From Escherichia coli (GTDB lineage Bacteria > Pseudomonadota > Gammaproteobacteria > Enterobacterales > Enterobacteriaceae): a stretch of DNA of 64,000 nucleotides. The notes below the pieces were generated by a model. It made no database searches. It was not told the origin of the DNA and saw nothing but the letters and a program-made list of their open reading frames with translations. The DNA lies in assembly GCF_030013595.1 (NCBI RefSeq), contig NZ_CP122768.1. One strand, written 5' to 3'. Positions 23,071 through 59,144 of this stretch are shown piece after piece. Each line of letters begins with the position of its first letter. Within the stretch, counting starts at the first letter, position 1. The position numbers and the translations under genes are program-made.

Positions 23071-24474
23071 ATGAATCAACAGGATATTGAACAGGTGGTG
23101 AAAGCGGTACTGCTGAAAATGCAAAGCAGTGACACGCCGCCCGCCGCCCTTCATGAGATGGGTGTTTTCGCGTCCCTGGATGACGCCGTTGCGGCAGCCA
23201 AAGTCGCCCAGCAAGGGTTAAAAAGCGTGGCAATGCGCCAGTTAGCCATTGCTGCCATTCGTGAGGCAGGCGAAAAACACGCCAGAGATTTAGCGGAACT
23301 TGCCGTCAGTGAAACCGGCATGGGGCGCGTCGAAGATAAATTTGCCAAAAACGTCGCTCAGGCGCGCGGCACACCAGGCGTTGAGTGCCTCTCTCCGCAA
23401 GTGCTGACGGGCGACAACGGCCTGACTTTAATTGAAAACGCGCCCTGGGGCGTGGTGGCTTCGGTGACGCCTTCCACTAACCCGGCGGCAACCGTAATTA
23501 ACAACGCCATCAGCCTGATTGCCGCGGGCAACAGCGTCATTTTTGCCCCGCATCCGGCGGCGAAAAAAGTCTCCCAGCGGGCGATTACGCTGCTCAACCA
23601 GGCGATTGTTGCCGCAGGCGGGCCGGAAAACTTACTGGTTACTGTGGTCAATCCGGATATCGAAACCGCGCAACGTTTGTTCAAGTTTCCGGGTATCGGC
23701 CTTTTGGTGGTGACCGGCGGCGAAGCGGTAGTGGAAGCGGCGCGTAAACACACCAATAAACGTCTGATTGCCGCGGGCGCTGGCAACCCACCGGTAGTGG
23801 TGGATGAAACCGCCGACCTCGCCCGTGCCGCTCAGTCCATCGTCAAAGGCGCTTCTTTCGATAACAACATCATTTGTGCCGACGAAAAGGTACTGATTGT
23901 TGTTGATAGCGTAGCCGATGAACTGATGCGTCTGATGGAAGGCCAGCACGCGGTGAAACTGACCGCAGAGCAGGCGCAGCAGCTGGAACCGGTGTTGCTG
24001 AAAAATATCGACGAGCGCGGAAAAGGCACCGTCAGCCGTGACTGGGTTGGTCGCGATGCGGCGAAAATCGCGGCGGCAATCGGCCTTAAAGTTCCGGAAC
24101 AAACGCGACTGCTGTTTGTAGAAACCACCGCAGAACATCCGTTTGCCGTGACCGAACTGATGATGCCGGTGCTGCCCGTCGTGCGTGTCGCCAACGTGGC
24201 GGATGCCATTGCGCTGGCGGTGAAACTGGAAGGCGGTTGCCACCACACGGCGGCAATGCACTCGCGCAACATCGAGAACATGAACCAGATGGCGAACGCC
24301 ATTGATACCAGCATCTTCGTTAAGAACGGACCGTGCATTGCCGGGCTGGGGCTGGGCGGGGAAGGCTGGACCACCATGACCATCACCACGCCAACCGGTG
24401 AAGGGGTAACCAGCGCGCGTACGTTTGTCCGTCTGCGTCGCTGTGTATTAGTCGATGCGTTTCGCATTGTTTAA
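23071..24474 (+). CDS. eutE: CoA-acylating acetaldehyde dehydrogenase EutE
   Basis: 467 aa aldehyde-dehydrogenase family. Confidence 0.9.
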   Translation: MNQQDIEQVVKAVLLKMQSSDTPPAALHEMGVFASLDDAVAAAKVAQQGLKSVAMRQLAIAAIREAGEKHARDLAELAVSETGMGRVEDKFAKNVAQARGTPGVECLSPQVLTGDNGLTLIENAPWGVVASVTPSTNPAATVINNAISLIAAGNSVIFAPHPAAKKVSQRAITLLNQAIVAAGGPENLLVTVVNPDIETAQRLFKFPGIGLLVVTGGEAVVEAARKHTNKRLIAAGAGNPPVVVDETADLARAAQSIVKGASFDNNIICADEKVLIVVDSVADELMRLMEGQHAVKLTAEQAQQLEPVLLKNIDERGKGTVSRDWVGRDAAKIAAAIGLKVPEQTRLLFVETTAEHPFAVTELMMPVLPVVRVANVADAIALAVKLEGGCHHTAAMHSRNIENMNQMANAIDTSIFVKNGPCIAGLGLGGEGWTTMTITTPTGEGVTSARTFVRLRRCVLVDAFRIV

Positions 24475-24484
24475 GGAGTAACAG

Positions 24485-24910
24485 ATGGCGCACGACGAAC
24501 AATGGCTCACCCCGCGTCTGCAAACGGCGGCAACGCTGTGTAACCAGACGCCTGCCGCAACGGAATCTCCGCTGTGGCTGGGGGGGGATCTGGGCACCTG
24601 CGATGTGGTGTCGATGGTTGTCGACCGCGACGGTCAGCCGGTGGCGGTATGCCTCGACTGGGCCGATGTGGTCCGCGACGGCATCGTCTGGGATTTCTTC
24701 GGTGCGGTCACCATTGTTCGTCGCCATCTCGACACCCTCGAGCAGCAATTCGGTCGCCGTTTTAGCCATGCGGCGACCTCATTTCCTCCAGGTACGGACC
24801 CGCGTATTTCCATCAACGTGCTGGAATCTGCCGGGCTGGAAGTGAGCCATGTGCTGGATGAGCCAACCGCAGTCGCGGATCTGCTGCAACTGGACAACGC
24901 AGGCGTAGTG
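24485..24910 (+). pseudogene. eutJ: eutJ 5' fragment (codons 1-142), interrupted by IS10
   Basis: The reading frame runs straight into the IS10 outside end at 24911; 24485..24910 plus 26249..26659 gives 278 codons with a continuous ...NAGVV|DIGGGTTGIAIV... junction. Confidence 0.85.
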
Positions 24911-24956
24911 CTGATGAATCCCCTAATGATTTTGGTAAAAATCATTAAGTTAAGGT

Positions 24957-25025
24957 GGATACACATCTTGTCATATGATCAAATGGTTTCGCGAAAAATC
25001 AATAATCAGACAACAAGATGTGCGA
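24957..25025 (-). ncRNA. Predicted IS10 antisense RNA-OUT (pOUT transcript), placed by position within IS10
   Basis: Coordinates inferred from the known IS10 layout (transposase start at IS nt 108, matching the ATG at 25018); not independently verified. Confidence 0.4.
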
Positions 25026-26226
25026 ACTCGATATTTTACACGACTCTCTTTACCAATTCTGCCCCGAATTACACTTAAAACGACTCAACAGCTTAACGTT
25101 GGCTTGCCACGCATTACTTGACTGTAAAACTCTCACTCTTACCGAACTTGGCCGTAACCTGCCAACCAAAGCGAGAACAAAACATAACATCAAACGAATC
25201 GACCGATTGTTAGGTAATCGTCACCTCCACAAAGAGCGACTCGCTGTATACCGTTGGCATGCTAGCTTTATCTGTTCGGGCAATACGATGCCCATTGTAC
25301 TTGTTGACTGGTCTGATATTCGTGAGCAAAAACGACTTATGGTATTGCGAGCTTCAGTCGCACTACACGGTCGTTCTGTTACTCTTTATGAGAAAGCGTT
25401 CCCGCTTTCAGAGCAATGTTCAAAGAAAGCTCATGACCAATTTCTAGCCGACCTTGCGAGCATTCTACCGAGTAACACCACACCGCTCATTGTCAGTGAT
25501 GCTGGCTTTAAAGTGCCATGGTATAAATCCGTTGAGAAGCTGGGTTGGTACTGGTTAAGTCGAGTAAGAGGAAAAGTACAATATGCAGACCTAGGAGCGG
25601 AAAACTGGAAACCTATCAGCAACTTACATGATATGTCATCTAGTCACTCAAAGACTTTAGGCTATAAGAGGCTGACTAAAAGCAATCCAATCTCATGCCA
25701 AATTCTATTGTATAAATCTCGCTCTAAAGGCCGAAAAAATCAGCGCTCGACACGGACTCATTGTCACCACCCGTCACCTAAAATCTACTCAGCGTCGGCA
25801 AAGGAGCCATGGGTTCTAGCAACTAACTTACCTGTTGAAATTCGAACACCCAAACAACTTGTTAATATCTATTCGAAGCGAATGCAGATTGAAGAAACCT
25901 TCCGAGACTTGAAAAGTCCTGCCTACGGACTAGGCCTACGCCATAGCCGAACGAGCAGCTCAGAGCGTTTTGATATCATGCTGCTAATCGCCCTGATGCT
26001 TCAACTAACATGTTGGCTTGCGGGCGTTCATGCTCAGAAACAAGGTTGGGACAAGCACTTCCAGGCTAACACAGTCAGAAATCGAAACGTACTCTCAACA
26101 GTTCGCTTAGGCATGGAAGTTTTGCGGCATTCTGGCTACACAATAACAAGGGAAGACTTACTCGTGGCTGCAACCCTACTAGCTCAAAATTTATTCACAC
26201 ATGGTTACGCTTTGGGGAAATTATGA
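25018..26226 (+). CDS. IS10 transposase
   Basis: 402 aa, MCELDILHDSLYQFCPELHLKRLNSL...HGYALGKL; identical at protein level to the copy at 31470..32678. Confidence 0.93.
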   Translation: MCELDILHDSLYQFCPELHLKRLNSLTLACHALLDCKTLTLTELGRNLPTKARTKHNIKRIDRLLGNRHLHKERLAVYRWHASFICSGNTMPIVLVDWSDIREQKRLMVLRASVALHGRSVTLYEKAFPLSEQCSKKAHDQFLADLASILPSNTTPLIVSDAGFKVPWYKSVEKLGWYWLSRVRGKVQYADLGAENWKPISNLHDMSSSHSKTLGYKRLTKSNPISCQILLYKSRSKGRKNQRSTRTHCHHPSPKIYSASAKEPWVLATNLPVEIRTPKQLVNIYSKRMQIEETFRDLKSPAYGLGLRHSRTSSSERFDIMLLIALMLQLTCWLAGVHAQKQGWDKHFQANTVRNRNVLSTVRLGMEVLRHSGYTITREDLLVAATLLAQNLFTHGYALGKL

Positions 26227-26239
26227 GGGGATCTCTCAG

Positions 26240-26659
26240 GGCGTAGTGGATATCGGCGGCGGCACTACCGGCATTGCCATCGTGAAAAAGGGCAAGGTGA
26301 CGTACTCGGCGGATGAAGCCACTGGCGGACATCACATCTCTCTGACTCTCGCCGGAAATCGCCGTATTTCGCTGGAAGAGGCGGAGCAGTACAAGCGCGG
26401 TCACGGTGAAGAGATTTGGCCTGCGGTGAAACCGGTGTACGAAAAAATGGCGGACATTGTCGCCCGGCATATTGAAGGGCAGGGCATTACTGATTTATGG
26501 CTGGCGGGCGGCTCCTGTATGCAACCGGGCGTGGCGGAACTGTTTTGCAAACAATTCCCGGCGTTACAGGTGCATCTACCGCAGCACAGTTTGTTTATGA
26601 CCCCGCTGGCGATCGCCAGTAGCGGGCGAGAGAAAGCGGAGGGGATCTATGCAAAATGA
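26240..26659 (+). pseudogene. eutJ: eutJ 3' fragment (starts with the duplicated 9 bp)
   Basis: In frame with the 5' fragment after removing the IS and one TSD copy; Hsp70/actin-like ATPase motif DIGGGTT. Confidence 0.85.
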
Positions 26660-27836
26660 ATTGCAGACCGCGCTCTTTCAGGCGTTCGATACCCTGAATC
26701 TGCAACGGGTAAAAACATTTAGCGTTCCACCAGTGACGCTTTGCGGTCCGGGCGCGATGAGCAGTTGCGGGCAGCAAGCGCAAACGCGTGGGCTGAAACA
26801 TCTGTTCGTGATGGCAGACAGCTTTTTGCATCAGGCGGGGATGACCGCCGGGCTGACGCGTAGCCTGGCCGTTAAAGGTATCGCCATGACGCTCTGGCCA
26901 TGTCCGGTGGGCGAACCGTGCATCACCGACGTGTGTGCAGCCGTGGCGCAGTTGCGTGAATCGGGTTGCGATGGGGTGATCGCGTTTGGCGGCGGCTCGG
27001 TGCTGGATGCAGCAAAAGCCGTGGCGTTGCTGGTGACGAACCCGGATAGCACGCTGGCAGAGATGTCAGAAACCAGCGTTCTGCAACCGCGCCTGCCGTT
27101 GATTGCCATTCCAACTACCGCCGGAACCGGTTCTGAAACCACCAACGTAACGGTGATTATCGACGCGGTGAGCGGGCGCAAGCAGGTGTTAGCCCACGCC
27201 TCGCTGATGCCGGATGTGGCGATTCTCGACGCTACGCTGACCGAAGGCGTGCCGTCGCATGTCACGGCGATGACCGGTATCGACGCGTTAACCCATGCTA
27301 TTGAAGCGTACAGCGCGCTGAACGCTACACCGTTTACCGACAGCCTGGCGATTGGCGCAATCGCGATGATTGGTAAATCACTGCCGAAAGCGGTGGGCTA
27401 CGGTCATGACCTTGCCGCGCGCGAGAGCATGTTGCTGGCTTCATGCATGGCGGGAATGGCGTTTTCCAGTGCGGGGCTTGGGTTATGCCACGCGATGGCG
27501 CATCAGCCAGGGGCGGCGCTGCATATTCCGCACGGTCTGGCGAACGCTATGTTGCTGCCAACGGTGATGGAATTTAACCGGATGGTTTGTCGTGATCGGT
27601 TTAGCTTGGTTGGTCGGGCGCTGCGAACTAAAAAATCCGACGATCGTGACGCTATTAACGCGGTAAGTGAGCTGATTGCGGAAGTCGGGATTGGTAAACG
27701 ACTGGGCGATATTGGTGCGACATCTGCGCATTACGGCGCATGGGCGCAGGCCGCGCTGGAAGATATTTGTCTGCGCAGCAACCCGCGTACCGCCAGCCTG
27801 GAGCAGATTGTCGGCCTGTACGCAGCGGCGCAATAA
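26649..27836 (+). CDS. eutG: Iron-containing alcohol dehydrogenase EutG
   Basis: 395 aa, Fe-ADH family. Confidence 0.88.
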   Translation: MQNELQTALFQAFDTLNLQRVKTFSVPPVTLCGPGAMSSCGQQAQTRGLKHLFVMADSFLHQAGMTAGLTRSLAVKGIAMTLWPCPVGEPCITDVCAAVAQLRESGCDGVIAFGGGSVLDAAKAVALLVTNPDSTLAEMSETSVLQPRLPLIAIPTTAGTGSETTNVTVIIDAVSGRKQVLAHASLMPDVAILDATLTEGVPSHVTAMTGIDALTHAIEAYSALNATPFTDSLAIGAIAMIGKSLPKAVGYGHDLAARESMLLASCMAGMAFSSAGLGLCHAMAHQPGAALHIPHGLANAMLLPTVMEFNRMVCRDRFSLVGRALRTKKSDDRDAINAVSELIAEVGIGKRLGDIGATSAHYGAWAQAALEDICLRSNPRTASLEQIVGLYAAAQ

Positions 27837-27842
27837 AAGTGT

Positions 27843-27940
27843 ACGGACAGTCCCCTCGCCCCTTTGGGGAGAGGGTTAGGGTGAGGGGAACAGAGTCGCG
27901 CCGGTGCAAACAATTACCCTCACCCCGGCCCCTCGGCTTC
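27843..27940. repeat. GC-rich interspersed palindromic repeat (boxC-like), copy 2, with an extra inverted arm
   Basis: acggacagtcccctcgcccctttggggagagggttagggtgaggggaac, then ttaccctcaccccggcccctcggc, which is partly complementary to it. Confidence 0.55.
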
Positions 27941-28005
27941 CAGAGTGAGGGAAAAACCCACTTTCAGCATTGGCAATAAATAACAACTAACAGGGAGTAA
28001 AGGCG

Positions 28006-29232
28006 ATGGGAATTAACGAAATCATCATGTACATCATGATGTTCTTTATGCTGATAGCTGCCGTAGACAGGATCCTGTCGCAGTTCGGCGGTTCTGCTCG
28101 TTTCCTCGGTAAGTTCGGTAAAAGTATCGAAGGATCCGGCGGGCAGTTTGAAGAAGGCTTTATGGCGATGGGCGCACTGGGCCTGGCGATGGTTGGTATG
28201 ACCGCGCTGGCACCTGTTCTGGCCCACGTACTCGGACCGGTGATTATCCCGGTTTACGAAATGCTCGGTGCAAACCCGTCAATGTTCGCCGGAACACTGC
28301 TGGCGTGCGATATGGGCGGGTTCTTCCTCGCCAAAGAGCTGGCGGGCGGCGACGTAGCAGCGTGGCTATACTCTGGGTTAATTCTCGGGTCGATGATGGG
28401 GCCAACGATTGTGTTTTCCATTCCGGTGGCGCTCGGCATTATCGAACCTTCTGACCGTCGTTATCTGGCGCTCGGCGTGCTGGCGGGCATTGTGACCATT
28501 CCGATTGGCTGTATTGCTGGTGGTCTGGTTGCTATGTACTCCGGTGTGCAGATCAACGGTCAGCCGGTGGAATTCACCTTTGCGCTGATCCTGATGAACA
28601 TGATCCCGGTACTTATCGTTGCGGTGCTGGTGGCGCTGGGGCTGAAATTCATCCCGGAAAAAATGATCAACGGCTTCCAGATCTTCGCCAAATTCCTCGT
28701 TGCATTGATCACCCTCGGTCTTGCTGCCGCGGTAGTGAAATTCCTCCTTGGCTGGGAACTGATCCCGGGCCTTGATCCTATCTTTATGGCCCCTGGCGAC
28801 AAACCCGGTGAAGTGATGCGCGCCATTGAAGTTATCGGTTCTATCTCCTGCGTTCTGTTAGGGGCGTATCCGATGGTGCTGCTGCTGACCCGCTGGTTTG
28901 AAAAACCGCTGATGAGCGTCGGTAAAGTGCTGAATATGAACAACATCGCGGCAGCCGGCATGGTGGCAACGCTTGCCAACAACATCCCGATGTTCGGCAT
29001 GATGAAGCAGATGGATACCCGCGGCAAAGTCATCAACTGCGCCTTCGCCGTTTCCGCTGCTTTCGCCCTGGGCGACCACTTAGGCTTCGCCGCTGCCAAC
29101 ATGAACGCCATGATTTTCCCGATGATTGTCGGCAAATTGATCGGCGGCGTAACGGCGATTGGCGTGGCGATGATGCTGGTGCCAAAAGAAGACGCGACCG
29201 CGGCTAAAACCGAAGCGGAGGCACAATCGTGA
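28006..29232 (+). CDS. eutH: Ethanolamine permease EutH
   Basis: 408 aa polytopic membrane protein. Confidence 0.88.
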   Translation: MGINEIIMYIMMFFMLIAAVDRILSQFGGSARFLGKFGKSIEGSGGQFEEGFMAMGALGLAMVGMTALAPVLAHVLGPVIIPVYEMLGANPSMFAGTLLACDMGGFFLAKELAGGDVAAWLYSGLILGSMMGPTIVFSIPVALGIIEPSDRRYLALGVLAGIVTIPIGCIAGGLVAMYSGVQINGQPVEFTFALILMNMIPVLIVAVLVALGLKFIPEKMINGFQIFAKFLVALITLGLAAAVVKFLLGWELIPGLDPIFMAPGDKPGEVMRAIEVIGSISCVLLGAYPMVLLLTRWFEKPLMSVGKVLNMNNIAAAGMVATLANNIPMFGMMKQMDTRGKVINCAFAVSAAFALGDHLGFAAANMNAMIFPMIVGKLIGGVTAIGVAMMLVPKEDATAAKTEAEAQS

Positions 29233-30632
29233 ACACTCGCCAGCTACTGAGCGTCGGTATCGATATCGGCACCACCACCACCCAGGTGATTTTCTCCCAC
29301 CTGGAGCTGGTTAACCGTGCGGCGGTGTCGCAGGTGCCGCGCTACGAATTCATCAAACGCGAAATTAGCTGGCAAAGCCCGGTGTTCTTTACCCCTGTCG
29401 ATAAACAGGGTGGTTTAAAAGAAGCGGAACTGAAAACCTTAATCCTCGAGCAATATCAGGCTGCGGGCATTGCGCCGGAAAGCGTTGATTCTGGTGCCAT
29501 CATTATCACCGGTGAAAGCGCAAAAACCCGCAACGCTCGCCCGGCGGTGATGGCGCTCTCCCGGTCGCTGGGCGATTTTGTCGTCGCCAGCGCCGGGCCG
29601 CATCTTGAATCCGTGATCGCCGGACACGGTGCCGGGGCGCAAACCCTTTCTGAACAACGGCTGTGTCGGGTCCTGAATATCGATATCGGCGGTGGCACCG
29701 CGAACTACGCCCTGTTCGATGCCGGAAAAATCAGCGGCACTGCCTGCCTCAACGTCAGCGGTCGCCTGCTGGAAACCGACAGCCAGGGGCGCGTGGTTTA
29801 CGCTCATAAACCGGGGCAGATGATTGTGGATGAGTGCTTCGGTGCCGGTACTGACGCCCGTTCGCTGACTGGCGGGCAGCTGGTGCAGGTTACCCGCCGG
29901 ATGGCAGAGCTGATTGTCGAAGTGATTGACGGAACGCTCTCGCCGCTCGCGCAGGCATTGATGCAAACCGATTTGCTGCCCGCAGGTGTTACGCCCGAAA
30001 TCATTACGCTTTCTGGCGGGGTAGGCGAATGTTATCGCCACCAGCCCACCGACCCGTTCTGTTTTGCCGATATCGGCCCGCTTCTGGCAACGGCGCTGCA
30101 TGACCATCCGCGTCTGCGTGAGATGAACGTGCAGTTTCCGGCGCAAACCGTGCGCGCCACGGTGATTGGCGCGGGTGCTCATACCCTTTCGCTCTCTGGC
30201 AGCACAATCTGGCTGGAGGGCGTACAACTGCCGCTGCGCAATTTGCCAGTGGCGATCCCGATTGATGAAACGGATCTGGTCAGTGCCTGGCAACAGGCGC
30301 TGATTCAACTGGATCTTTGCCCCAAAACTGACGCGTACGTGCTGGCGCTTCCCGCCTCGCTGCCTGTGCGTTACGCCGCGGTACTGACGGTCATCAACGC
30401 GCTGGTCGATTTCGTCGCGCGTTTTCCGAATCCGCATCCCCTGCTGGTGGTGGCCGGGCAGGACTTTGGTAAAGCTCTGGGCATGTTGTTGCGCCCACAG
30501 CTACAACAACTCCCGTTGGCAGTCATTGACGAAGTGATTGTCCGCGCGGGGGACTATATCGACATTGGTACGCCTCTTTTTGGCGGATCGGTTGTGCCGG
30601 TGACGGTGAAATCACTCGCATTTCCTTCCTGA
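29229..30632 (+). CDS. eutA: Ethanolamine ammonia-lyase reactivase EutA
   Basis: 467 aa; ATGA-type 4-bp overlap with eutH. Confidence 0.88.
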   Translation: MNTRQLLSVGIDIGTTTTQVIFSHLELVNRAAVSQVPRYEFIKREISWQSPVFFTPVDKQGGLKEAELKTLILEQYQAAGIAPESVDSGAIIITGESAKTRNARPAVMALSRSLGDFVVASAGPHLESVIAGHGAGAQTLSEQRLCRVLNIDIGGGTANYALFDAGKISGTACLNVSGRLLETDSQGRVVYAHKPGQMIVDECFGAGTDARSLTGGQLVQVTRRMAELIVEVIDGTLSPLAQALMQTDLLPAGVTPEIITLSGGVGECYRHQPTDPFCFADIGPLLATALHDHPRLREMNVQFPAQTVRATVIGAGAHTLSLSGSTIWLEGVQLPLRNLPVAIPIDETDLVSAWQQALIQLDLCPKTDAYVLALPASLPVRYAAVLTVINALVDFVARFPNPHPLLVVAGQDFGKALGMLLRPQLQQLPLAVIDEVIVRAGDYIDIGTPLFGGSVVPVTVKSLAFPS

Positions 30633-30643
30633 GGGAACGACTT

Positions 30644-31456
30644 ATGAAACTAAAGACCACATTGTTCGGCAATGTATATCAGTTTAAGGATGTAAAAGAG
30701 GTGCTGGCTAAAGCCAACGAACTGCGTTCGGGGGATGTGCTGGCGGGCGTTGCTGCGGCAAGTTCACAGGAGCGCGTGGCGGCAAAGCAGGTGTTGTCGG
30801 AAATGACCGTAGCGGACATCCGCAATAATCCGGTGATTGCCTATGAAGATGACTGCGTGACGCGGCTGATTCAGGACGACGTTAACGAAACGGCCTATAA
30901 CCAGATTAAAAACTGGAGCATCAGCGAACTGCGTGAGTATGTGCTGAGCGATGAAATCAGCGTGGACGACATTGCCTTTACCCGCAAAGGGCTGACCTCG
31001 GAAGTGGTGGCGGCGGTAGCGAAGATTTGCTCCAACGCGGACCTGATCTACAGCGCGAAGAAAATGCCGGTGATCAAAAAGGCCAATACCACCATCGGTA
31101 TTCCGGGCACCTTTAGCGCCCGTTTGCAGCCGAACGATACCCGTGACGACGTGCAAAGTATCGCCGCGCAAATCTACGAAGGGCTTTCCTTCGGGGTGGG
31201 CGATGCGGTGATTGGCGTTAACCCGGTGACTGACGACGTGGAAAACTTAAGCCGCGTGTTGGATACCATTTATGGCGTGATCGACAAATTCAACATCCCA
31301 ACTCAGGGCTGCGTACTGGCGCACGTCACCACCCAGATCGAAGCGATCCGTCGTGGCGCACCAGGCGGGCTGATTTTCCAGAGTATCTGTGGCAGCGAAA
31401 AAGGGCTGAAAGAGTTTGGCGTAGAGCTGGCGATGCTCGATGAAGCACGCGCAGTG
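30644..31456 (+). pseudogene. eutB: eutB 5' fragment (ethanolamine ammonia-lyase large subunit), interrupted by IS10
   Basis: MKLKTTLFGNVYQFKDVKEVLAKANELRSGDV...; frame enters the IS10 inside end at 31457. 30644..31456 plus 32795..33343 gives 454 codons (453 aa). Confidence 0.88.
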
Positions 31457-31469
31457 CTGAGAGATCCCC

Positions 31470-32678
31470 TCATAATTTCCCCAAAGCGTAACCATGTGTG
31501 AATAAATTTTGAGCTAGTAGGGTTGCAGCCACGAGTAAGTCTTCCCTTGTTATTGTGTAGCCAGAATGCCGCAAAACTTCCATGCCTAAGCGAACTGTTG
31601 AGAGTACGTTTCGATTTCTGACTGTGTTAGCCTGGAAGTGCTTGTCCCAACCTTGTTTCTGAGCATGAACGCCCGCAAGCCAACATGTTAGTTGAAGCAT
31701 CAGGGCGATTAGCAGCATGATATCAAAACGCTCTGAGCTGCTCGTTCGGCTATGGCGTAGGCCTAGTCCGTAGGCAGGACTTTTCAAGTCTCGGAAGGTT
31801 TCTTCAATCTGCATTCGCTTCGAATAGATATTAACAAGTTGTTTGGGTGTTCGAATTTCAACAGGTAAGTTAGTTGCTAGAACCCATGGCTCCTTTGCCG
31901 ACGCTGAGTAGATTTTAGGTGACGGGTGGTGACAATGAGTCCGTGTCGAGCGCTGATTTTTTCGGCCTTTAGAGCGAGATTTATACAATAGAATTTGGCA
32001 TGAGATTGGATTGCTTTTAGTCAGCCTCTTATAGCCTAAAGTCTTTGAGTGACTAGATGACATATCATGTAAGTTGCTGATAGGTTTCCAGTTTTCCGCT
32101 CCTAGGTCTGCATATTGTACTTTTCCTCTTACTCGACTTAACCAGTACCAACCCAGCTTCTCAACGGATTTATACCATGGCACTTTAAAGCCAGCATCAC
32201 TGACAATGAGCGGTGTGGTGTTACTCGGTAGAATGCTCGCAAGGTCGGCTAGAAATTGGTCATGAGCTTTCTTTGAACATTGCTCTGAAAGCGGGAACGC
32301 TTTCTCATAAAGAGTAACAGAACGACCGTGTAGTGCGACTGAAGCTCGCAATACCATAAGTCGTTTTTGCTCACGAATATCAGACCAGTCAACAAGTACA
32401 ATGGGCATCGTATTGCCCGAACAGATAAAGCTAGCATGCCAACGGTATACAGCGAGTCGCTCTTTGTGGAGGTGACGATTACCTAACAATCGGTCGATTC
32501 GTTTGATGTTATGTTTTGTTCTCGCTTTGGTTGGCAGGTTACGGCCAAGTTCGGTAAGAGTGAGAGTTTTACAGTCAAGTAATGCGTGGCAAGCCAACGT
32601 TAAGCTGTTGAGTCGTTTTAAGTGTAATTCGGGGCAGAATTGGTAAAGAGAGTCGTGTAAAATATCGAGTTCGCACAT
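31470..32678 (-). CDS. IS10 transposase
   Basis: 402 aa, identical to the copy at 25018..26226. Confidence 0.93.
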   Translation of the reverse strand: MCELDILHDSLYQFCPELHLKRLNSLTLACHALLDCKTLTLTELGRNLPTKARTKHNIKRIDRLLGNRHLHKERLAVYRWHASFICSGNTMPIVLVDWSDIREQKRLMVLRASVALHGRSVTLYEKAFPLSEQCSKKAHDQFLADLASILPSNTTPLIVSDAGFKVPWYKSVEKLGWYWLSRVRGKVQYADLGAENWKPISNLHDMSSSHSKTLGYKRLTKSNPISCQILLYKSRSKGRKNQRSTRTHCHHPSPKIYSASAKEPWVLATNLPVEIRTPKQLVNIYSKRMQIEETFRDLKSPAYGLGLRHSRTSSSERFDIMLLIALMLQLTCWLAGVHAQKQGWDKHFQANTVRNRNVLSTVRLGMEVLRHSGYTITREDLLVAATLLAQNLFTHGYALGKL

Positions 32679-32739
32679 CTTGTTGTCTGATTATTGATTT
32701 TTCGCGAAACCATTTGATCATATGACAAGATGTGTATCC
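32671..32739 (+). ncRNA. Predicted IS10 antisense RNA-OUT of copy 2, placed by position
   Basis: Mirror of the copy-1 placement; pOUT points toward the outside end at 32785 and onward into eutB'-eutC. Confidence 0.4.
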
Positions 32740-32785
32740 ACCTTAACTTAATGATTTTTACCAAAATCATTAGGGGATTCATCAG

Positions 32786-33343
32786 CGCGCAGTGGGCGCG
32801 GAGTTCAACCGTATCGCCGGGGAAAACTGTCTCTACTTCGAAACCGGGCAAGGCTCGGCGCTGTCCGCTGGCGCGAACTTCGGCGCAGACCAGGTGACGA
32901 TGGAAGCGCGTAACTATGGGCTGGCGCGTCATTACGATCCGTTTATCGTCAACACCGTGGTCGGTTTTATTGGGCCGGAGTATCTCTACAACGACCGCCA
33001 GATTATCCGTGCGGGCTTAGAAGATCACTTTATGGGCAAGCTGAGCGGCATCTCGATGGGCTGTGACTGCTGCTACACCAACCACGCTGACGCTGATCAG
33101 AACCTCAACGAAAACCTGATGATCCTGCTCGCCATCGCAGGCTGTAACTACATCATGGGGATGCCGCTGGGCGATGACATCATGCTCAACTATCAGACCA
33201 CCGCATTCCACGACACTGCCACTGTGCGTCAGTTACTCAACCTGCGCCCGTCACCGGAGTTTGAACGCTGGCTGGAAAGCATGGGCATTATGGCAAACGG
33301 TCGCCTGACCAAACGGGCGGGCGATCCGTCACTGTTCTTCTGA
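32786..33343 (+). pseudogene. eutB: eutB 3' fragment (starts with the duplicated 9 bp)
   Basis: ...RAVGAEFNRIAGENCLYFETGQG... continues the EutB frame and ends at the TGA at 33341-33343. Confidence 0.88.
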
Positions 33344-58157: not shown

Positions 58158-59144
58158 ATGATGCAGGATTTGCGTCTGATATTAATCATTGTTGGCGCGA
58201 TCGCCATAATCGCTTTACTGGTACATGGTTTCTGGACCAGCCGTAAAGAACGATCTTCTATGTTCCGCGATCGGCCATTAAAACGAATGAAGTCAAAACG
58301 TGACGACGATTCTTATGACGAGGATGTCGAAGATGATGAGGGCGTTGGTGAGGTTCGTGTTCACCGCGTGAATCATGCCCCGGCTAACGCCCAGGAGCAT
58401 GAGGCTGCTCGTCCGTCGCCGCAACACCAGTACCAACCGCCTTATGCGTCTGCGCAGCCGCGTCAACCGGTCCAGCAGCCGCCTGAAGCGCAGGTATCGC
58501 CGCAACATGCTCCGCGTCCAGCGCAGCCGGTGCAGCAGCCTGCCTATCAGCCGCAGCCTGAACAGCCGTTGCAGCAGCCAGTTTCGCCACAAGTCGCGTC
58601 AGCGCCGCAGCCAGTGCATTCAGCACCGCAACAGGCACAACAGGCTTTCCAGCCTGCAGAACCCGTAGCGGCACCACAGCCTGAGCCTGTAGCGGAACCG
58701 GCTCCAGTTATGGATAAACCGAAGCGCAAAGAAGCGGTGATTATCATGAACGTCGCGGCGCATCACGGTAGCGAGCTAAACGGTGAACTGCTTCTTAACA
58801 GCATTCAACAAGCGGGCTTCATTTTTGGCGATATGAATATTTACCATCGTCATCTTAGCCCGGATGGCAGCGGCCCGGCGTTATTTAGCCTGGCGAATAT
58901 GGTGAAACCGGGAACCTTTGATCCTGAAATGAAGGATTTCACTACTCCGGGTGTCACTATCTTTATGCAGGTACCTTCTTACGGTGACGAGCTGCAGAAC
59001 TTCAAGCTGATGCTGCAATCTGCGCAGCATATTGCCGATGAAGTGGGTGGTGTAGTGCTTGACGATCAGCGCCGTATGATGACTCCGCAGAAATTGCGCG
59101 AGTACCAGGACATCATCCGCGAAGTCAAAGACGCCAACGCCTGA
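58158..59144 (+). CDS. zipA: Cell-division protein ZipA (TM anchor, P/Q-rich linker, FtsZ-binding domain)
   Basis: 328 aa from [26 protein letters not shown]...; ORF track extends 17 codons upstream to 58107. Confidence 0.9.

Follow-up and report, generated by a model that had tools for sequence, protein, structure and literature searches.

The window, that is, the whole stretch of 64,000 nucleotides that was analyzed, is a piece of E. coli chromosome that runs from yphA and IS1397 at the left through dapE, acrD, and narQ to the eut operon, and then on to zipA, ligA, and yfeR. Two genes of the operon are broken by IS10, eutJ by copy 1 and eutB by copy 2. Copy 1 (24911..26239, + strand) is 1329 bp long and lies inside eutJ with its outside end at the left. 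The 9-mer GGCGTAGTG is found on both sides of it, at 24902..24910, where it forms the codons GGC GTA GTG of eutJ, and again at 26240..26248. The outside end of the element (CTGATGAATCCCC... from 24911) begins directly 3' of the left GGCGTAGTG, and the inside end (...GGGGATCTCTCAG, last base 26239) stops directly 5' of the right one. The transposase gene of copy 1 (25018..26226, + strand) encodes a DDE enzyme of 402 aa, and the antisense RNA, RNA-OUT (24956..25025, − strand), is directed outwards, to the left, antisense to eutJ and eutE.

Copy 2 (31457..32785, − strand) is also 1329 bp long and lies inside eutB, with the inside end at its left and the outside end at its right. It is flanked by the 9-mer CGCGCAGTG, at 31448..31456 (codons CGC GCA GTG of eutB) and at 32786..32794. 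Its 402-aa transposase gene is at 31470..32678 on the − strand, and its RNA-OUT (32671..32740, + strand) is directed outwards, to the right, toward the eutB remnant and eutC. The two copies are inverted and 100% reverse-complementary over their 1329 bp. Between them (26249..31447, + strand) is chromosomal DNA in its native orientation, comprising the 3' part of eutJ, eutG, eutH, eutA, and the 5' part of eutB. Thus, both 9-bp direct duplications are perfect, and each copy of the element has its own pair. A preliminary description of this DNA, made from the sequence alone, had noted that the two targets share the pattern GCG-N-AGTG. This is confirmed; the duplications are real, and GGCGTAGTG and CGCGCAGTG are identical at 7/9 positions (2, 3, 4, 6, 7, 8, and 9).

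The element has the expected features of IS10. The outside end is CTGATGAATCCCCTAATGATTTT and the inside end is CTGAGAGATCCCCTCATAATTTC; these terminal repeats are imperfect, with 17/23 positions matched, and both begin with CTGA. The transposase matches Pfam PF01609 at 1.5e-24 and the NCBIfam IS4 family transposase at 4e-121. D97, D161, and E292, which we take to be the catalytic residues of the IS10 transposase, are all present. RNA-OUT is found at full length near the outside end of both copies (Rfam RF00240; score 98.8 bits, gathering score 41). The IS10 subgroup of the IS4 family has a length of 1200–1350 bp and CT ends (PMC2266710), and the 1329 bp of both copies falls within that range. 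Each copy has a 9-bp direct target duplication, and the empty sites of a close relative have one copy of each 9-mer. Furthermore, the element shows 0 mismatches to 14 of the 20 full-length natural copies that we found on unrelated viral, genome, and metagenome contigs, and also 0 mismatches to an E. coli chromosomal copy. In RefSeq, such copies carry the name 'IS4-like element ISVsa5 family transposase'. Residues C134 and C249 of the transposase are wild type; mutations at these residues relax the target specificity of IS10 (Bender & Kleckner 1992b, as described in PMC2229646).

Over the 5,217 bp that separates the IS10 copies, the window is 100% identical to HCP5S3_I2 and LCP30S3_I5, two UK pig isolates in which both eutJ and eutB are intact. 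The next-best genomes have 98.1% identity. When each IS10 and one of its 9-mers were removed from the window, the reconstructed sequence matched HCP5S3_I2 over 35.6 kb across both sites with 22 mismatches and 0 gaps. Both events were therefore simple insertions that duplicated 9 bp. Neither IS10/eut junction was found in 5,426 complete E. coli genomes with junction-spanning queries, and the IS10/eutJ junction was not found on 72,556 plasmids. Since each copy has its own duplication, the relative has the empty sites, and the junctions are absent from the 5,426 genomes, the two insertions are recent, separate, and simple, and they are private to this genome.

Another match of IS10 in eut, in the chicken isolates Z1323CEC0004 and Z1323CEC0002, was rejected as an example of the same insertion. 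The site is different, with IS10 inside an IS1 that is located immediately downstream of eutA (locus L094, NZ_CP148483.1, 1340116-1342148), and this IS10 had been brought together with the eut match by piece-joining. In these isolates, murI and gadC are found in place of the eutB-side genes, so this is another IS-mediated disruption of eut at another site.

A few other differences between the window and its closest relative were seen. At the left edge (1-1843), yphA (DoxX) and IS1397 (IS3 family; orfA 438-968, orfB 1073-1795) adjoin the ypfN/dapE region at about 1828, whereas the relative has tmcA-ypfH at this place, indicating a rearrangement associated with IS1397, either a deletion or an inversion. 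At about 40102, between yfeY and yfeX, HCP5S3_I2 has a 711-bp IS200/IS605 element that the window lacks. The zipA gene (~58460-58514) exceeds that of the relative by about 68–69 bp, probably through a length polymorphism in a repetitive linker region. Finally, eutE (23071-24474) is an intact ORF of 467 aa in the window, whereas the annotation of the closest relative lists it as a pseudogene that contains an internal stop; two of the 22 single-nucleotide differences, at 23599 and 23952, are located in it.

The two copies of IS10 have the geometry of Tn10. Between 24911 and 32785, a distance of 7,875 bp, they are inverted, with the outside ends outermost (24911, + strand; 32785, − strand) and both transposase genes intact. 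As in Tn10, inverted IS10 copies with outermost outside ends bracket a segment, here of 5.2 kb, and the size of the whole unit is near that of Tn10. Unlike in Tn10, the cargo consists of chromosomal eut genes rather than tetA/tetR, and the arrangement was formed in situ by two insertions. This geometry might suggest that a single event brought in both copies, either as a Tn10-like composite or through a rearrangement mediated by IS10, in which case the repeats would not be independent. However, a composite would leave one duplication around the whole unit, while here GGCGTAGTG is on the left and CGCGCAGTG is on the right. Furthermore, the DNA between the copies is native in order and orientation and 100% identical to that of the relative. 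With different outer flanks and a native interior, the unit gives no sign of having moved as a whole. Given a separate duplication for each copy, and native DNA between them that is colinear with the empty sites, a single-event origin is hardly conceivable, and we have rejected it. The Tn10-like geometry is the expected consequence of two nearby IS10 copies.

Why are there two copies of IS10 in one operon? The copies are 100% identical and only 6.5 kb apart, and both insertions are private to this genome, so one of them could be a short-range hop from the other, in either direction, with the proximity of the donor explaining the spacing, rather than the quality of the target or the tolerance of an operon that was already broken. 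However, the closest relative is already rich in IS10. The query of IS10 plus eut has 25 matching places on the HCP5S3_I2 chromosome, while the eut part alone has 9, which gives about 16 IS10 places and shows that the lineage is IS10-rich. In a genome of 5.27 Mb with about 18 copies, chance alone would place at least one pair within 6.5 kb in about 30% of cases. Nor does identity point to a donor and its product, since most natural IS10 copies do not differ from each other. In addition, after the loss of eutJ, a second insertion in the operon would probably be neutral. For these reasons, a short-range hop is possible but rather unlikely.

The preferred target of IS10/Tn10 is 5'-NGCTNAGCN-3' (Halling & Kleckner 1982, as cited in PMC4574204 and PMC10294622), which is the hotspot consensus given in the preliminary description. 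There, the targets were said to resemble this consensus only at some positions and hence to be secondary sites. Both points have held up. Neither target is a perfect hotspot (NGCTNAGCN, with all six GCT-N-AGC bases); each matches at 4/6 positions (G2, C3, A6, and G7), and both deviate in the same way, T4 to G and C8 to T, so that their half-sites are GCG and ACT instead of GCT and GCT. In the reconstructed window, a match to GCTNAGC at 4/6 or more is seen for only 4.3% of 9-mers, and thus the fit of two out of two targets to the consensus exceeds chance (p ~0.002). A relaxed consensus, 5'-NRCNNNGYN-3', was derived from many insertions (Kovarik et al. 2001, as quoted in PMC4574204 and PMC2758499). 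Both GGCGTAGTG and CGCGCAGTG satisfy it at all four specified positions, G2, C3, G7, and T8. In the form used in PMC10359306, NRCWNWRYN, they fit at 5/6, with the G at position 4 breaking W. Neither 9-mer occurs in the available text of the supplementary files of PMC10359306, which covers 2,690 natural IS10 events.

To compare the eut targets with natural ones, copies of IS10 from many sources were collected. The exact 39-nt outside end was searched for in three public collections and was present at 31, 10, and 49 loci. The 9 bp adjoining each outside end yielded 87 unique 9-mers. The logo of these junctions comes mainly from viral-contig and metagenome matches, with 10 IS10 junctions from genome contigs. 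With 87 sites, the set is small; its hosts are mixed, selection has already acted on it, and its flank data are from one side only. Three full-length natural copies lack matching 9-bp repeats, which fits composite ends or later rearrangement; one metagenome contig, L071, has two IS10 outside ends that are 158 bp apart.

When the natural sites were symmetrised, position 2 was found to be G in 64% and A in 33%, position 3 was C in 86% and T in 14%, and position 8 was C in 64% and T in 33%. Position 4 is less constrained, with T in 55%, A in 23%, C in 14%, and G in 8%. A perfect 6/6 match to GCTNAGC is present in only 4 of the 87 sites, so that about 95% depart from the hotspot as the eut targets do, 5/6 in 28, and 3/6 or fewer in 20; the commonest class is 4/6, with 35. 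The preliminary description had allowed that the comparison with the consensus might prove unremarkable, and so it does, since both eut targets are in this commonest class. A secondary site is thus the normal condition for IS10. The relaxed consensus NRCNNNGYN fits 58/87 natural sites. ACT is the second commonest half-site among the natural junctions, and GCG is uncommon (9/174 half-sites). With a weight matrix of the core made from this set, the two eut targets rank 563 and 611 among 61,316 window positions, in the top 1%, and at about the 30th percentile of the natural sites.

The sequence around the 9 bp also has an effect. Tn10 insertion depends on the context of about 6 bp flanking the 9 bp (Bender & Kleckner 1992a, as described in PMC2229646). 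In the natural set, A is found at −1 in 50% of the sites and at −5 in 45%, and the composition is biased out to −6, which agrees with the 6-bp context effect as PMC2229646 describes it. At both eut targets, these preferences are matched on the left side only. When mirrored 6-bp flanks were added to the core matrix, the targets ranked 49–59 and 64–312 of 61,304 (top 0.1–0.5%), the ranks varying with the background used. Of the twelve perfect GCTNAGC sites that the window contains, several have comparable ranks. Two of the perfect cores are close to the insertions and unused: one at 30943-30949, inside the bracketed segment (flank-aware rank 51–148), and one at 33040-33046, 255 bp downstream of copy 2 (rank 6–13), both of ~61,300 positions. 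That these sites at 30943 and 33040 were passed over counts against the explanation by typical targets. The eut targets are typical, mid-ranking natural IS10 targets.

We considered how much of the likeness of the two targets to each other is due to this specificity. At least 7/9 shared bases are expected for 0.2% of pairs of random window positions. For pairs drawn from the weight-matrix model, the chance is 5% when both are read on one strand and 9% if the orientation with the best match is taken, and for pairs of natural sites it is 8%. The bases G2, C3, A6, G7, and T8 are common to both targets because of the specificity of IS10. Thus, the 7/9 likeness is mostly forced by that specificity, together with chance. 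In the window, GCGNAGTG has 15 matches, 4 of them the duplicated copies, compared with 12.25 expected, so the bare motif shows no enrichment.

What the specificity leaves over is G4, G9, and the GCA that immediately precedes the duplication, a mild surplus of likeness that was noticed post hoc. The G at position 4 in both targets is the rarest base there, at 8% of natural sites, and this counts against the explanation by typical targets. The identity of the two sites over 21 bp is 12/21 (p ~0.04–0.07 under the model). The codon phase is also the same, as both duplications start at codon position 1 (GGC GTA GTG in eutJ and CGC GCA GTG in eutB). The peptide contexts at 24882-24910 and 31428-31456 are similar, ...LQLDNAGVV in EutJ and ...AMLDEARAV in EutB, and the 20 bp upstream of the two duplications is identical at 11/20 positions. 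The likeness upstream of the 6-bp flank that IS10 reportedly senses looks coincidental.

Could these features outside of the consensus, G4, G9, the 5' GCA, and the codon phase, reflect an extended or alternative IS10 motif, or a bias specific to this lineage? The 7/9 identity in the core and 12/21 with the flanks have p ~0.04–0.09 under the weight-matrix model, G4 occurs in both targets although it is present in 8% of natural sites, and the natural flank bias toward A at −1 (50%) and A at −5 (45%) is matched on the left of both sites. However, the p-values are marginal, and the features were picked after looking. Sites with a GCG half-site make up 16% of the model insertion mass in the window, as this triplet is frequent in the coding DNA of E. 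coli. The enzyme encoded here is the wild-type form, with the same sequence as that of the commonest natural copy. Furthermore, the targets are oppositely oriented relative to the element, with ...AGTG next to the outside end of copy 1 and CGCG... next to that of copy 2, so an asymmetric motif would not be common to both. An extended motif or a lineage-specific bias is therefore improbable. We would likewise give little credence to the proposal that one of two novelties is present, either that the IS10-eut-IS10 unit (24911-32785) is a new, transposition-competent Tn10-like composite able to mobilise the eut genes, or that GCA-N-GCG-N-AGTGG is an unrecognised extended preference of IS10. The 9-bp repeats are very probably the target-site duplications from two separate insertions of wild-type IS10 into typical targets in the eut operon.

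The analysis itself shows what the element is, its exact ends and duplications, that both sites were empty in the ancestral state, and how well the targets fit statistically; a mechanism for these events can be proposed from established knowledge of Tn10/IS10. Very probably, wild-type IS10 inserted twice by cut-and-paste, into eutJ and into eutB, in an E. coli from an IS10-rich lineage. After double-strand excision, the complex of transposase and transposon ends would capture and bend the target, as the literature on Tn10/IS10 suggests, contacting the symmetric core (5'-GCTNAGC-3' inside the 9 bp) and its flanks over about 6 bp. Both 3' ends of the transposon would then be joined to the target, 9 bp apart on opposite strands, if the staggered joining described in the literature applies here, and gap repair would duplicate the 9 bp. 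Both eut sites have the two strongly constrained base pairs of each half-site (G2 C3 and G7 Y8). They depart from the consensus at the third base of one half-site, where constraint is weak (T4 to G), and by the common C8 to T variant.

What are the consequences for the strain? Ethanolamine utilisation has probably been lost, given that both eutJ and eutB are broken and that genes farther downstream presumably suffer polar effects of the insertions. The RNA-OUT of copy 2, and hence pOUT, faces the eutB remnant and then eutC-eutL-eutK-eutR (32671-33343, and downstream to ~36531). Judging from this arrangement, transcription outward from copy 2 could drive the distal eut genes.

The biology at this locus is already known and is fully accounted for by the known behavior of IS10. 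Beyond annotation, then, the meaning of the finding is small: IS10 disrupted eut twice, recently and by simple insertion, at targets typical of the element. For the element itself, the logo of 87 natural junctions independently reproduces the relaxed consensus and the flank effect of about 6 bp, and perfect hotspots are a small minority of natural insertions.
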